DNA from: an uncultured Lachnospiraceae bacterium
Lineage (GTDB): Bacteria; Bacillota; Clostridia; Lachnospirales; Lachnospiraceae
Direction of reading: 5' to 3'
Length of the DNA stretch: 48,081 bases
NCBI GenBank assembly: GCA_948954545.1
Contig: CARCRR010000028.1
Span: 1-48,081 of the forward strand
This document shows, one piece after another, positions 8,625 to 46,655 of the stretch. The first letter of the stretch is position 1. Each line of letters starts with the position of its first letter. The notes under the pieces were generated by a model that saw only the letters and a program-made list of their open reading frames with translations, ran no database searches and was not told the DNA's origin. Made by a program: the position numbers and the translations under genes.

Positions 8625-8865
8625 GGACGCCAGAGTATGGCATTGCAGTACTGTTTCGCTCTACAGAAAGTAAGAAGCTCTAAGACTTCTGAATTTAGAT
8701 GCATCCAACCGGACGGACCGGGGTGCAATTCGCCCGTGCTGCGGGCTAAACACACCCCTTTTTTTGCCATTCGAGAATGGCAAAAAATCCTAATGAATCG
8801 ACAGAAGTCTAAAAGCTTCTAACTTTCCTCCGAAGTCACAGTACTGCAATGCCATACTCTGGCTG
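8625..8865 (-). repeat. Family-1 foldback element, copy 2 (reverse orientation).
   Basis: Termini GGACGCCAGAGT...ACTCTGGCTG, the same central hairpins, and a copy-specific self-complementary arm segment TATGGCATTGCAGTACTG / CAGTACTGCAATGCCATA. Confidence 0.85.
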
Positions 8866-23407: not shown

Positions 23408-23614
23408 GGATTTAATTTAACCTCCTAAATCTTTAAATTAAAAATATATCGCCTATTTTATATAAAAATGCGGAGAGAAATCCATATTTTTCCTCTCCGA
23501 TCTATTTACCATCTCTATTATAAAAGCAGCCTTAAAATTTTTCAACTATATTTTATTATAAATATAATATTCCATGTAAAACATAGGAAAATTTTCACTA
23601 AAGCATAAAAATCA

Positions 23615-23718
23615 AAGGAAATTCGCAATCCGCTTCACTACTCGCTCATAACCTCATAGCCACTATCGCAACTTTTCAATGAAAGTCTAAAGTCTGCACT
23701 TCCTTGATGAGGTTAAAA
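23615..23718 (+). repeat. Family-2 repeat, degenerate copy (left module + variant middle hairpin + right end).
   Basis: ATTCGCAATCCGCTTCACTACTCGCTCATAACCTCAT ... ACTTCCTTGATGAGGTTAAAA. Confidence 0.7.
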
Positions 23719-25554: not shown

Positions 25555-25681
25555 CAAGTCAAATCGGATATTCGCAATCCGCTTTGCTACTTGCTCCTAA
25601 CCTCATCAAGGAAGTCCACCGCTTTCGCCTTGGCGGCTTAGAAGCGGGGGACTTCCTTGATGAGGTTAAAATATTGAAAAT
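25555..25681 (+). repeat. Family-2 repeat, full copy (left module CAAGTCAAATCGGATATTCGCAATCCGCTTTGCTACTTGCTC + 19-bp-stem hairpin).
   Basis: Direct repeat of 27790-27911. Confidence 0.85.
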
Positions 25682-25889: not shown

Positions 25890-26771
25890 ATGAATAGTAG
25901 AGATATTCTAGATGCCGCCAAAAAAGAATTATCTTCTTTAGACAGTCATTTGATTGATGTACTAGATATCAAACGTCCAACAACATTAGCATACGCAAAA
26001 CAACTCGCAAAAGTTATCTCAAAACTTTCTCCATTGTTGGGAAATATGATTGAATTTTCTACAATTGACTTATTAAATAAACACGACTGGAATGGCGTAG
26101 GTGAATGGATAAGGCAAGATCCTGGTTTCCCTGATGCACTTTTCAAGAGTAGCATAATCCAACCTAACCCTGGTATCGAAATTAAAGCATGGTTTCCTTT
26201 TGCAACAGAAATCACAGCACGCTTCAAGGACAGTGTAACGATTTTTGCACAAGATAATATAGATATGGCACTAATTGCATGGCTACCAGAGAATGTTATT
26301 TGGGGAAAGCCTCAAATTATTGATGTCCTTATAGTTAGCGGTAAGAGTGTTGCAGAAGCAAGAGATTCCCACTACCATAAACCACCTGACTATCTTGTTT
26401 TTGAACCAGAAGACACCTCTGAACGTACCACTAATTTGCAGCAAACCAACACGAATGGTTATAAATTACAATCAGATAAATGCGATGCTAAAGCTGCATT
26501 TTCCATTGTTGAAACATGGGGAAAAGATGCCCAAAGATACAGTCCTGCCCCAGAATATCAACGACTTCTAAGAACTCTATACGGACAATTTATTTATAGA
26601 CTTGATACTAATTATGCCAAAATCGACCGTATAGAACATGAGGAAATTGAACAATTTAAAACCCATGTTTTAAATACTGTTTTTCATAGTATGACAATCA
26701 AACAATGGAGTGAAATTTTATCCTCAAAAGATGAAAAAAAGTTAGAGAACGCATTGAAAACCATCCTGTAA
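25890..26771 (+). CDS. Putative type II restriction endonuclease (PD-(D/E)xK candidate), 293 aa.
   Basis: Candidate catalytic motif FPD-x14-EIK (…QDPGFPDALFKSSIIQPNPGIEIKAW…). The gene is convergent with, and overlaps by 30 bp, a DNA methyltransferase gene, in an AT-rich local composition. Confidence 0.45.
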   Translation: MNSRDILDAAKKELSSLDSHLIDVLDIKRPTTLAYAKQLAKVISKLSPLLGNMIEFSTIDLLNKHDWNGVGEWIRQDPGFPDALFKSSIIQPNPGIEIKAWFPFATEITARFKDSVTIFAQDNIDMALIAWLPENVIWGKPQIIDVLIVSGKSVAEARDSHYHKPPDYLVFEPEDTSERTTNLQQTNTNGYKLQSDKCDAKAAFSIVETWGKDAQRYSPAPEYQRLLRTLYGQFIYRLDTNYAKIDRIEHEEIEQFKTHVLNTVFHSMTIKQWSEILSSKDEKKLENALKTIL

Positions 26772-27740
26772 ACTGTTTTTTACTCGTTCTACTGCTATAT
26801 TATATACATCATGATTGATTTCTGCACAAAAACAAATTCGTTCCAACTCAGTTGAAGCAACCGCTGTTGTACATAATCCAGCAAATGGATCCCAAACCAC
26901 ATCACCAACATCAGAAACCATTTCTATGATACGTTTAATCAATTCCAATGGTTTCTGATTTAGATGTATTGCCTTTTGGTTAATTTTCAAGCGTTCATGC
27001 CCTCTCAACTGTGGAACCTGCCATACATTTGTCACACCAATAGGACAATAAAACTTTGAACGCATCTGTGCCCACTCTTTTTTTGTTATAACGGTTTTAC
27101 CATTTAAAGAAAAGTATGGTTTTCCATTATCTGCTCCAAATGTATTTGCATATACTGCAATCTTTTCAAAAGCTTCTGCAGGCGGCATATACCATAAATG
27201 ACATTTTGTAAAATATTTTCTTGTTGCGGCATCTTTCACTCCACAAGCTTCATTTGTTTTTGAAAATGGAAGCCCTGTACGTTCCCATTCATAGCGCAGC
27301 CATTCTTTCATTGTCATTTGAACCTCCCCTACCATAAAGATAGGCTTTTTTACATATTGAACACACACTTCTGTAACTACAGGCAAATGTCTAATCGTTT
27401 TAGTATTTGTATTTCCCGCTGCATGTCCCATTCCTTTATCCCATACACAGCAAGAAACATAATCCCAGCCATATTTTTCTAACATAGGGTGAACCGTTGC
27501 CCAGCCAACCTCAGTACACCAAAACCATAACGTTGTAAGCGGTGTAGCAAAAGAACTCCATTTTTTTATATGTGGCTCATACCACTCTGCAAGTCCTTTA
27601 TATGAAACTAAATCTCCTGGAAATCCATTTACGCCATATGGTCCATCACAGATTATAACAACTGGAGTTTTCCATTTACTATATAATCTAATCGCATCCC
27701 CACAATATAAATGAATATTTTCAAAATCTATTTTATCCAC
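26742..27740 (-). CDS. DNA methyltransferase, beta-class (motif IV before motif I), N6-adenine or N4-cytosine.
   Basis: ICDGPYG (DPPY-like motif IV) near the N-terminus; VVWDPFAGLCTTAVAS (motif I, AdoMet binding) near the C-terminus. Confidence 0.8.
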   Translation of the reverse strand: MDKIDFENIHLYCGDAIRLYSKWKTPVVIICDGPYGVNGFPGDLVSYKGLAEWYEPHIKKWSSFATPLTTLWFWCTEVGWATVHPMLEKYGWDYVSCCVWDKGMGHAAGNTNTKTIRHLPVVTEVCVQYVKKPIFMVGEVQMTMKEWLRYEWERTGLPFSKTNEACGVKDAATRKYFTKCHLWYMPPAEAFEKIAVYANTFGADNGKPYFSLNGKTVITKKEWAQMRSKFYCPIGVTNVWQVPQLRGHERLKINQKAIHLNQKPLELIKRIIEMVSDVGDVVWDPFAGLCTTAVASTELERICFCAEINHDVYNIAVERVKNSLQDGFQCVL

Positions 27741-27789: not shown

Positions 27790-27911
27790 CAAGTCAAATC
27801 GGATATTCGCAATCCGCTTCGCTACTTGCTCATAACCTCATCAAGGAAGTCCCAACCCACCGCTTTCGCCTTGACGGCTTAGAAGCGGGGGACTCCCTTG
27901 ATGAGGTTAAA
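27790..27911 (+). repeat. Family-2 repeat, full copy.
   Basis: CAAGTCAAATCGGATATTCGCAATCCGCTTCGCTACTTGCTCATAACCTCATCAAGGAAGTCCCAACCCACCGCTTTCGCCTTGACGGCTTAGAAGCGGGGGACTCCCTTGATGAGGTTAAA. Confidence 0.85.
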
Positions 27912-32517: not shown

Positions 32518-32537
32518 TTCTTTTAGTCAAAGGAAAT

Positions 32538-32690
32538 AAGGAAATTCGGAATCCGCTCCTTCCTCATAATCCTATGCTGCTATCGCTGCTTGTCAGATGG
32601 GACTTTCCCCCAGCTGACACAAGGAAGTCCCCCAACCCACCGCTTTCGCCTTCACGGCTTAGAAGCAGGGGACTTCCTTGATAGGTTAAA
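32538..32690 (+). repeat. Family-2 repeat, variant copy with an extra middle hairpin module.
   Basis: …ATTCGGAATCCGCTCC…TGTCAGATGGGACTTTCCCCCAGCTGACA…CAAGGAAGTCCCCCAACCCACCGCTTTCGCCTTCACGGCTTAGAAGCAGGGGACTTCCTTGATAGGTTAAAA. Confidence 0.75.
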
Positions 32691-44724: not shown

Positions 44725-44960
44725 ACGCCAGAGTACTTGAAAGGGAACTGTTCCGCTCTCCGAAAAGCAGAAGCTCTAAGACTTCTGAATCTAGGCATAT
44801 CCAACCGGACGGATCGGGGTGCAATTCGCCCGTACAGCGGGCTAAACACACCCCTTTTTTTGCCATTCGAGAATGGCAAAAAATCCTAGTGGATTGACAG
44901 AAGTCTAAGAGCTTCTAACTTTCCTCCGAAGTCACAGTTCCCTTTCAAGTACTCTGGCTG
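44725..44960 (-). repeat. Family-1 foldback element, copy 5 (reverse orientation).
   Basis: Termini ACGCCAGAGT…ACTCTGGCTG; self-complementary variable segment ACTTGAAAGGGAACTG / CAGTTCCCTTTCAAGT. Confidence 0.85.
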
Positions 44961-45070: not shown

Positions 45071-45112
45071 GGTCAAATCGGATATTCGCAATCCGCTTTG
45101 ACTATCCCTATC
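45071..45112 (+). repeat. Family-2 repeat, left module only (solo fragment).
   Basis: GGTCAAATCGGATATTCGCAATCCGCTTTGAC. Confidence 0.6.
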
Positions 45113-45454
45113 AGACAGTTCTCTATATCAGCCGTAATCATTTTATGCCTGTATTTTATACACCAAACAATATGATATTGGATGGAATATACCTATCCAC
45201 GTCCATGAGTCACTTCCATATAGAATCACCTCGTTATACAAACGATAATAGATGTATGTTGTTATATCAATTATTTTTAATATTATTACTTGAAATTTAA
45301 TTAACATCTGTGAACAATTCATCCCACGACTAAATGCTCATGTACGGTAAAGAAGCAAGCAACCGAAAACAAGAGATAGACCGCCAGCACCACACTATTC
45401 CGAACCAAAGGCCAAAAGACAAGCATGATGGAATCCCTCTCTCATTCCTTTATG

Positions 45455-45862
45455 TCAAAAAGATTTTCCGCTGTTTTCCGTTCCCCATTGACACATACTT
45501 TCCATAATGGGGAGGAGGGAACGTCCTTTATTTGAAAGACTATACTCAACTTTTGGTGGTATCTGCGGATATTCTTTACGGATAATAAGCCCGTCTGCTT
45601 CCAATGCCTTTAACTCTGTACTTAATGTTTTGTAGGTGATTGTTCCGATTTTTCGTTGTAGTTCGTTAAAACGTATTGTGTCGTATTCAACGAGCCAATA
45701 GAGAATAACCAGCCGCCATTTTCCACCAATCATAGACAATGTATAGCCAAAAGGAGTATCAGTCAAAGAAACAATTCTCTTTTCAAATTTTTCCATGCTC
45801 ATATAGGTACTTTCCTTAAAGATAGTATTTGTCAAAAAAGTGCGTACTTGTCTTTTTGACAT
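45455..45862 (-). CDS. HxlR-family (MarR-like) transcriptional regulator.
   Basis: GGKWRLVILYWL…IRFNELQRKIGTITYKTLSTELKALEADGLI winged-helix signature. It is divergent from a flavin reductase gene, the typical arrangement. Confidence 0.8.
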   Translation of the reverse strand: MSKRQVRTFLTNTIFKESTYMSMEKFEKRIVSLTDTPFGYTLSMIGGKWRLVILYWLVEYDTIRFNELQRKIGTITYKTLSTELKALEADGLIIRKEYPQIPPKVEYSLSNKGRSLLPIMESMCQWGTENSGKSF

Positions 45863-45913: not shown

Positions 45914-46655
45914 ATGAAAAGAATAATGGTTATTTTAGGCGGCGGGCGTGTCAATGGAAATACATCACAGTTAGCAGAAGCATTTATGAACGGAGCTAAA
46001 GAAGCCGGACACCAAGTAGAGATGGTATCATTGAACAAACTGAATGTAAATGGCTGCATAGGCTGTAATGCCTGTCACTATGGTAAATCTTGTGTACAAA
46101 AAGATGATTTTAACCTCATCAAGGAAGTCCCCCGCTTCTAAGTCGCCAAGGCGAAAGCGGTGGGTTGGGACTTCCTTGTTTCAGTGGGAGTGCAGACTCC
46201 CACTGAAAAGCTGCGATAGTAGCTATGAGGTTATGAGCAAGTAGCGAAGCGGATTGCGAATATCCGATTTGACTTCACTTGTTCCAAAGATAAAAACGGC
46301 GGATTTAATCGTATTTGCGTCACCTTTATATTTCTGGACTGTATCATCAAAAATTAAAGCATTTATTGAACGTTTTTACTGTATAGCAGAAAAAGACGAG
46401 AATCCACCTTTGGGACGATATGAGAAATATCCCATACATGATTGTGCTTTGCTTATGACTTCCGCTGATAACTTTTTTTGGACGTTTGAGCAGGCTGTTT
46501 CTTACTATAAGTTTACATTGATAAACTATATCGGTTTTTACGATAAAGGTATGTTGCTTGCTGGTGGTTGTGGTGAAACAAACGGGAAACCTCAGATTTC
46601 AAAAACCACTCATTTAAGGGAAGCATATGAATTTGGAAAAGCAATTTACGAATAA
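45914..46655 (+). pseudogene. NAD(P)H-dependent FMN reductase / flavodoxin-like fold gene interrupted by a 163-bp family-2 element (at 46112-46274).
   Basis: The two ORFs 45914..46141 and 46254..46655 are N- and C-terminal halves of one protein (…CIGCNACHYGKSCVQKDDF | SLVPKIKTADLIVFASPLYFW…). Deleting 46112-46274 fuses them in frame. Confidence 0.8.
46112..46274 (-). mobile_element. Family-2 element (three-module variant) inserted within a coding sequence.
   Basis: The reverse complement reads GAAGTCAAATCGGATATTCGCAATCCGCTTCGCTACTTGCTCATAACCTCAT + middle hairpin CAGTGGGAGTCTGCACTCCCACTG + …GGGACTTCCTTGATGAGGTTA. Confidence 0.75.

Follow-up and report, generated by a model that had tools for sequence, protein, structure and literature searches.

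What has split a flavodoxin-like gene of an uncultured Lachnospiraceae bacterium into two open reading frames (ORFs) that are out of frame with each other, and how did the dividing DNA get there? The gene lies in a stretch of 48,081 nucleotides (assembly GCA_948954545.1, contig CARCRR010000028.1), here called the window. An earlier annotation made from the letters of this stretch, the sequence-only reading, had proposed that a member of a mobile repeat family (family 2) interrupts an NAD(P)H-dependent FMN reductase gene, and that its excision restores the reading frame. The dividing DNA is a mobile element of 160 bp, non-coding and non-autonomous, which lies directly 3' of a TTTAA pentanucleotide belonging to the host. 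Its movement is best explained by an HUH single-strand DNA transposase of the IS200/IS605- or REP/RAYT-like kind acting in trans, a mechanism to which we give a probability of about 55%.

The two ORFs, 45914..46141 (75 amino acids) and 46254..46655 (133 amino acids), are both on the plus strand and in different frames, as had been described. The junction was fixed by aligning the window with contigs that encode a 99% identical orthologue (L001–L003). In L001 and L003 the empty site reads GATGATTTTAA directly followed by TTCACTTG (in short form, GATTTTAA followed by TTCAC), while in the window the element, running from CCTCATC to GATTTGAC, is located between A46113 and T46274 of the 193-codon gene, with no host bases gained or lost. 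As the A before the insert differs from its last C, and its first C differs from the T that follows, the junction can be placed in one way only and shows no duplication; the same alignment reveals no terminal inverted repeats. The features of the interrupted locus are the following.

45455..45862, minus strand: HxlR-family regulator gene, divergent from the flavodoxin-like gene (Pfam HxlR, 1.9e-30; called at 115 amino acids in relatives)
45914..46113, plus strand: 5' part of the gene, residues 1–66 and two bases of the codon for Asn67; the frame continues into the element up to a TAA at 46139–46141
46109..46113, plus strand: target pentanucleotide TTTAA, host sequence (codons TTT AA-), directly 5' of the element and present once, unduplicated
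46114..46273, plus strand: the 160-bp element, delimited by alignment with the intact alleles L001 and L003 (nhmmer E = 6.5e-47)
46274..46655, plus strand: 3' part of the gene, the last base of the Asn67 codon and residues 68–193, in a different frame from the 5' part

The flanks of L001, L002, L003 and L095 are 97.2–98.6% identical to those of the window, mostly 98% or more, and the insert is a presence/absence polymorphism within one species. The intact 193-residue alleles of these sister strains bear out the splitting of the gene by a family-2 insert, but the proposed limits (46112–46274, 163 bp) move by 2 bp at the left and 1 bp at the right, and the site, when compared with the uninterrupted allele, contains no target-site duplication. 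Since 160 and 163 are both 1 modulo 3, the longer excision also restored the frame, but it removed a conserved asparagine: orthologues read DDFNSLVPK (...CVQKDDFNSLVPK), and Asn67 is missing from the 192-residue protein that was reconstructed. The earlier interpretation is supported, being right in substance and off by three bases in total. Mobility of the family, which it also claimed, is supported by the uninterrupted allele in strains of the same species. The intervening DNA is a repeat: probes of 28 and 31 nt match four and three places in the window, respectively, where shuffled sequences give an expectation of 0.00.

The joined product of both ORFs agrees with the earlier assignment to flavodoxin-like NAD(P)H-dependent FMN reductases. 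It matches the Pfam families FMN_red (1.7e-16, 60.6 bits, cut-off 24) and Flavodoxin_2 (2.2e-12, 47.5 bits, cut-off 27), both above the curated cut-offs and across the joined sequence. A search with the joined protein yielded 2719 homologues at E <= 0.001; the best 120 of these are 189–220 residues long and nearly all span 98–100% of the joined sequence, and the top orthologues have 193 residues and are 96–99% identical. Residues 48–60 (window 46055–46093) encode CIGCNACHYGKSC, with a CX2CX2CX5C motif that resembles that of iron-sulfur flavoproteins, and the name FMN reductase may be too narrow. The divergent HxlR neighbour, also noted earlier, is retained in all relatives examined (L001, L095, L216 and L217). 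The HxlR protein may regulate the flavodoxin-like gene, for which a role in redox stress would be conceivable.

In the interrupted allele, the Asn67 codon is rebuilt at the junction as AA plus C. The element then contributes eight foreign residues, LIKEVPRF, before the TAA at 46139–46141, so that the truncated protein has 75 residues: 66 native ones, the rebuilt asparagine and eight foreign ones. This stop comes nine codons after Phe66, rather than after ten codons of the insert as had been stated. The exact 75-residue product is on record in 13 independent contigs, and locus L217 carries an identical insert with the same private variants (a T in AAGTCGCC, and GTAGCT). The interrupted allele therefore has a single origin, and an assembly artefact is excluded. 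Residue 55 is His in the window, while it is Arg in the other interrupted alleles and invariably so in nine orthologues; in L216, the 3' half of the gene is gone, with the breakpoint inside the element. The interrupted allele is a pseudogene; it is in circulation within the population and continues to decay. The two small ORFs annotated in the window genome are parts of a single dead gene, killed by a small mobile element; the event is ordinary and the gene dispensable. Its value lies in the pair of filled and empty alleles, which fixes the ends of the element to the base.

Six copies of the element and one remnant are present in the window, as judged from an nhmmer profile and direct reading. 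An exact 35-mer of its first hairpin occurs in 82 stretches, many of them at contig ends, from only three of 185,579 species-representative genomes: two mouse-gut Lachnospiraceae metagenome-assembled genomes (MAGs), MGBC128194 and MGBC136627, and one MAG labelled Eubacteriaceae. The complete copies (n = 47) are mostly 160 bp (30 copies) or 114 bp (11 copies) long, with a few other lengths, and 22 of the 160-bp copies are identical. This identity and the restriction of the 35-mer to three species genomes suggest recent activity. The flavodoxin copy is the only one of 49 unique copies to interrupt a credible ORF.

As single-stranded DNA, the window copy has a folding energy of -54.3 kcal/mol (z = -10.9). 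Its three hairpins are enclosed by a closing helix, P1 (CCTCAT/ATGAGG), beyond which comes a tail of 43 nt ending in ...CCGATTTGAC; the 114-bp form does not contain hairpins 2 and 3. The two termini of the element are asymmetric and not inverted repeats (CCTCATCAAGG at the 5' end, CCGATTTGAC at the 3' end). The tail, TTATGAGCAAGTAGCGAAGCGGATTGCGAATATCCGCTTGAC, is conserved across a wider gut family. When metagenomes were scanned for this tail preceded by any base other than the G found in family-2 copies, at least 120 stretches were retrieved, mostly from human gut. They have (T)TTAA as left flank, or TTGA in one subfamily, and measure 64–165 nt. Their P1 helix is of unrelated sequence and encloses zero to three hairpins; by subfamily, its left strand reads CCTCAT, CCGAAT, ACGCAG, TCGATA, TAGAAT and so on, unlike the conserved tail hairpin. 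The end of the tail varies between TTGAC, TTGAT, TTTAC and TTAAC. An invariant GTAG precedes the tail hairpin AAGCGGAT-TGCGAAT-ATCCGCTT by 2 nt. In the subfamily formed by L130, L140 and L151, the flank is TTGA followed by A and the right end ...GCTTTAC, compared to TTTAA and ...TTGAC in the family of the window, as if the third bases of the flank and right-end motifs had been swapped.

An RNAalifold analysis of ten diverse members gives 52 base pairs, 18 of them with compensatory double changes, while the tail is invariant. By our own count, the top-strand cells of its table contain 28 G.U and 6 A.C combinations; the excess of G.U indicates that the same strand folds in all lineages. Decayed family-2 copies lack this asymmetry, with 26 G.T and 26 A.C mismatches. 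Covariation between masters together with the 26:26 ratio in old copies means that master copies need the structure and that inserted copies decay neutrally, which is the behaviour of a mobile element and not of a set of functional RNA genes. Rfam gave no match above a gathering threshold for the element, for the window as well as for ten related loci, and two 13-mers of the tail had no match in the literature. This is a large family of elements with an unusual build, of which no earlier description was found. It is abundant in Lachnospiraceae of the mouse and human gut and breaks assemblies, as the many copies at contig ends attest; because it encodes no protein and lacks both inverted repeats and a duplication, standard finders of insertion sequences and miniature inverted-repeat transposable elements (MITEs) will miss it.

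The five nucleotides before the element are TTTAA in nearly all of 46 unique flanks (TTT in 46/46, AA in 45/46), and the base after it is T in 40 of the 46. Beyond TTTAAT the flanks have no conservation. Copies L044 and L063 sit inside members of another dispersed repeat, whose uninserted paralogues read CACTTAA directly followed by TGAGCAG; the two inserted members carry a C to T change, giving TTTAA before the element and TGAGCAG after it, without duplication. Insertion only into members with this change shows that TTTAA is a target requirement and not part of the element. The top strand of the element is on the GC-skew-positive (G-rich) strand in 36 of 45 copies (p = 6.6e-5). Whether TTTAA commonly supplies a stop codon through its TAA was also examined; it does so in only 7 of 69 copies, and the idea was dropped. 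The host repeat of L044 and L063 is itself at least about 120 bp long, with copies 70–88% identical, in MGBC136627 and the 'Eubacteriaceae' MAG (L044 3998–4116, L040 453–572, L004 3324–3439 and dozens more). It contains TGAGCAG...CTGCGAAT, which recalls the core of the element's tail, and its occurrence in L044 has no Rfam match at E <= 1.

These properties recall the "peel and paste" transposition of IS608, with which the element shares five features: the lack of duplication, the lack of inverted termini, a fixed 5' pentanucleotide, a hairpin near the 3' end and a strand bias. Insertion without duplication 3' of a tetra- or pentanucleotide, with subterminal hairpins and guide tetranucleotides, has precedent, and the spacing of the left cleavage site of IS608 matches the 17–19 nt that separate TTTAA from the tail hairpin of the element when P1 is closed (PMC3201880). 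A strand bias like that of the element is reported for IS608 and ISDra2 (PMC5027513), some IS200/IS605 elements, those of Sulfolobus, have TTTAA as their left-end motif (10.1101/2023.03.06.531077) and GT[AG]G precedes the REP hairpins cut by RAYT (PMC6006769).

According to the mechanism we favour, the element would move as single-stranded DNA, by peel and paste, catalysed by a trans-acting HUH enzyme with a single tyrosine (Y1), either an IS200/IS605 TnpA or a REP-associated enzyme (RAYT). The enzyme would bind the conserved tail, with its GTAG 2 nt before the AAGCGGAT-TGCGAAT-ATCCGCTT hairpin, cut the top strand after the tail-terminal TTGAC and after the flanking TTTAA, and paste it 3' of another TTTAA, preferably one followed by T, exposed on the lagging-strand template. 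The P1 helix, free in sequence, could act as a clamp that sets the left boundary by bringing TTTAA to the base of the helix; with P1 closed, TTTAA would be about 17–19 nt 5' of the tail hairpin, and the one conserved hairpin could serve both ends. The inner hairpins would then be cargo or stabilisers.

Several observations count against this mechanism. The loci examined, about 1.47 Mb in total, yielded no transposase with matching ends, no copy has a gene between left end and tail, and all Y1 genes observed are pseudogenes that belong to an IS605 with other ends (TATGTCAA followed by GAACACC... on the left, and ...GAGGTTCAA on the right). The similar subterminal palindromes at both ends that define IS200/IS605 elements are not present: the left helix is arbitrary sequence from its very first base, and only the 3' tail is conserved. 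Since the two ends lack similar hairpins, we classify the element as working like IS200/IS605 and not as a proven member. The geometry of the P1 clamp was deduced from spacing only. The strand bias is confounded with gene orientation (31 copies are co-oriented with their flanking ORFs and 14 are not), and the flavodoxin copy itself is in the minority orientation. Three kinds of copies are left unexplained: hairpin-only copies without tail, flanked by TTTAA...TTAAA (L021 and L066, both minus strand); head-to-tail arrays of two to four units of short hairpin plus tail, of which the later ones begin directly after the preceding right end (L182, minus strand, around 6749–6960; L104, L105 and L118); and copies in which the inner loop of hairpin 1 is flipped relative to the rest (L045, L048 and L060).

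The search for an autonomous parent within these loci took several routes. No copies have more than 170 bp separating left end from tail, and pairs of left end and tail up to 5 kb apart are only neighbouring copies around ordinary genes. Neither tblastn with IS608 TnpA and IS605 TnpA and TnpB, nor a scan for the RuvC-III motif of TnpB, revealed a parent in the loci. ORFs repeated between loci include no parent enzyme, those directly upstream of tails are housekeeping genes by eye, and no RAYT-like ORF was recognised. Outside the loci, the right end has no matches in viral contigs, a plasmid BLAST gave no match, and a phage BLAST gave only nine unannotated faecal contigs.

Among known systems, the protein-less PATEs (palindrome-associated transposable elements), IS200/IS605 derivatives that are moved in trans by the Y1 HUH enzyme TnpA (PMC10055086), are similar to the element. 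They too are small, ORF-less and hairpin-rich, have a strand bias and many copies per genome, and insert 3' of a fixed, unduplicated pentanucleotide, without terminal inverted repeats. In the element, host bases are unchanged in three empty-site comparisons, the ends are asymmetric, and the top strand favours the lagging-strand template (36/45, with the confounding by gene orientation given above). The differences lie in the ends, which carry no matching pair of subterminal hairpins, and in the parent: no insertion sequence with the ends of the element and no cognate TnpA was found in the loci examined.

REP sequences (repetitive extragenic palindromes) and REPINs are also short, non-coding, present in high copy and mostly extragenic (1/49 of the element copies is in a gene). 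The invariant GTAG in the tail of the element recalls the GT[AG]G that stands just 5' of the REP hairpin, although it is 2 nt from the foot of the AAGCGGAT/ATCCGCTT stem. In both cases the presumed enzyme would be encoded elsewhere as a single gene. The element, hosted by Clostridia, differs in having one REP-like unit and a variable helix, not an inverted REP doublet. It also has a defined pentanucleotide as target and clean insertion junctions, neither of which is known for REPs. Like the element, the classical MITEs of bacteria (Correia, RUP, BOX, ERIC, bcr1) are short, non-coding, structured and dispersed, and can disrupt or modulate genes. They have terminal inverted repeats and, if mobile, target-site duplications, of which the element has neither.

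The Rfam family Clostridiales-1 (RF01699), an orphan candidate small RNA from Clostridiales and human gut metagenomes, shares with the element the core UGAGCA.G.AGC...GCGGA.UGCGAAU, the taxa, the habitat and multi-hairpin surroundings. It differs by an extra hairpin inside the core and by other outer helices, element copies score 18–24 bits against a threshold of 48, and Rfam treats it as an RNA gene and not as a mobile element. In the literature it is listed as "probably RNA" only, without a function (PMC2864571).

When other explanations are weighed, the interruption as such is beyond dispute. That the halves are naturally separate genes or domains, or were separated by an assembly artefact, has in its favour the two ORF calls alone; it is refuted by the full-length homologues (189–220 residues among the best 120 of 2719), the intact alleles of the same species and the 13 independent contigs with the interrupted allele. 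That the element is an ordinary MITE with inverted repeats, mobilised by a DDE transposase, with the 18-bp arms of hairpin 1 as termini and TTAA duplicated, is very improbable. The hairpin-only copies L021 and L066, flanked by TTTAA...TTAAA, do resemble a TTAA duplication around CCTCATC...GATGAGG, but each of the three empty-site comparisons shows the complete unit, 43-nt tail included, as the inserted DNA, with no duplication. Moreover, the tail is the most conserved part of the wider family, while the arms vary freely. Another recombinase that leaves no duplication, be it an IS110-type DEDD enzyme with a bridge RNA, an IS607-type serine enzyme, an IS91/Helitron-like Y2 enzyme or a tyrosine recombinase, is unlikely, if a more serious contender. 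In its favour, the element has neither duplication nor inverted termini, insertion between A and T with a hairpin near the 3' end is reminiscent of Helitron and IS91-type elements, the arrays in L182, L104, L105 and L118 would suit rolling-circle read-through, and no IS200-type enzyme was found in the loci. However, the specificity covers just 5–6 nt (TTTAA, then T), with nothing conserved beyond TTTAAT, whereas bridge-RNA systems read about 11–14 nt and the targets of IS607 (GG) and IS91 (GTTC/CTTG) are different. The junctions also lack the common core sequence that site-specific recombination would leave, and none of these enzymes was seen adjoining any copy.

Less probable than another recombinase, though well ahead of a MITE, is a structured RNA that spreads via an RNA intermediate (a relative of Clostridiales-1, a guide-RNA-like scaffold or a group II intron relic) or is retained because it functions as RNA, for example in termination or regulation. 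One copy (L201) matches Clostridiales-1 with 23.9 bits (E = 0.0019; core UGAGCA.G.AGC..GCGGA.UGCGAAU) and the tail in the window with 18.1 bits, while the window copy matches group-II-D1D4-2 (RF01999) with 24.7 bits (E = 0.0021). These scores are far under the gathering thresholds (48 for Clostridiales-1, 36 for group-II-D1D4-2), and such matches are leads, not memberships. The hairpins covary, G.U exceeds A.C on one strand and the copies are co-oriented with genes, all of which an RNA would explain, but covariation and strand asymmetry are equally expected of a single-stranded DNA substrate. There is no match to domain V/VI (D5/D6) or Intron_gpII, the boundaries CC...AC are not group I or II splice sites (GUGYG...AY for group II), and 70–165 nt is too small for a self-splicing intron. 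Single copies decay with G.T equal to A.C, so inserted copies are not under selection for RNA structure. Finally, close relatives do not have the insert, and the gene that it interrupts is degenerating; the insert is therefore not spliced out, nor is it tolerated as a functional part.

Transposition in trans by an HUH enzyme may be taken further, to a more speculative proposal. The copies may represent a seemingly undescribed family of single-stranded DNA elements of 64–165 nt from gut Clostridia, a minimal one-hairpin HUH transposon in which only a 43-nt REP-like tail is recognised, with a left boundary set by an arbitrary helix that folds the TTTAA target next to this tail and with arbitrary hairpin cargo, of which Clostridiales-1 would be a module and not a small RNA gene. 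We hold this proposal tentatively, as possible but doubtful. If true, no HUH transposase would be known to use a smaller substrate design than the one-tail-plus-clamp arrangement, and an orphan Rfam motif would gain a function; the pair of filled and empty alleles makes the arrangement directly testable with oligonucleotides.

The other copies in the window, all on the minus strand, are as follows.

1..56, minus strand: copy cut by the window edge, with left end TTTAA followed by CTTCATCAAGG...
23611..23712, minus strand: degenerate 102-bp copy, with hairpin 1 mostly deleted and the tail retained
25558..25665, minus strand: 108-bp copy, the 114-bp type minus 6 nt; the same insertion is present in MGBC128194 (L005)
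27793..27906, minus strand: 114-bp copy, without the 46-bp segment that carries hairpins 2 and 3
32526..32685, minus strand: 160-bp copy of a diverged subfamily, with P1 CCTAT/ATAGG and a degenerate tail (nhmmer E = 1.5e-29)
45072..45102, minus strand: right-end remnant in a 31-nt stretch, inside a tnpA pseudogene

The diverged copy at 32526..32685 comes after a TTTAA that closes a terminator-like run of T. The copies at 25558..25665 and 27793..27906, in the same orientation, bracket a 2.1-kb module with an N6_N4 DNA methylase gene (26742–27740, minus strand) and an ORF of 293 amino acids without Pfam match (25890–26771, plus strand). These two resemble a restriction-modification pair in a composite-like arrangement, and the layout is the same in MGBC128194 (L005).

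The pseudogene that contains the remnant is an IS200/IS605 tnpA (45097–45219, minus strand), with a start codon, an in-frame TAG after eight codons and then a YHIVWC motif. The tail-like 27-mer beside it (45072–45102) was considered as the right end of the IS200/IS605 element itself and rejected, as it is a truncated copy of the element described here. Alignment with the intact relative L093 and with L001 and L095 places its entry into tnpA on the opposite strand, between ATATTTAA and TAT. A 19-nt core between the 6-bp inverted repeats GTCAAA and TTTGAC is inverted in the window with respect to L001 and L095; it is a tiny hairpin-loop flip polymorphism that arose later in the lineage of the window. 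A second instance of the element landing in an IS605 gene is found in L037 (around 2647–3115), where a truncated copy is located in a tnpB-like pseudogene (36% identity to IS605 TnpB over 136 amino acids). In L075, a truncated Y1 transposase ORF is followed by an ORF of 416 amino acids (6069–6233 and 6618–7868, respectively); the latter has, by eye, an HNH motif and a RuvC-like GIDDGG motif and looks IscB-like.

Downstream of the flavodoxin-like gene, positions 47062–47652 (plus strand) encode an IstB_IS21-like fragment that matches the C-terminal part of the profile only (2.9e-07), after which relatives have a serine recombinase gene. Both features place the flavodoxin-like gene at the edge of a patch rich in mobile elements. 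The TwoAYGGAY RNA (RF01731) is also a dispersed repeat in the window (44755–44931, minus strand; 2733–2922, plus strand; 8659–8834, minus strand). Its second copy, upstream of addB, scores 65.3 bits and was missed by the whole-window gathering scan, while the third place is 94% identical to this second copy by BLAST.

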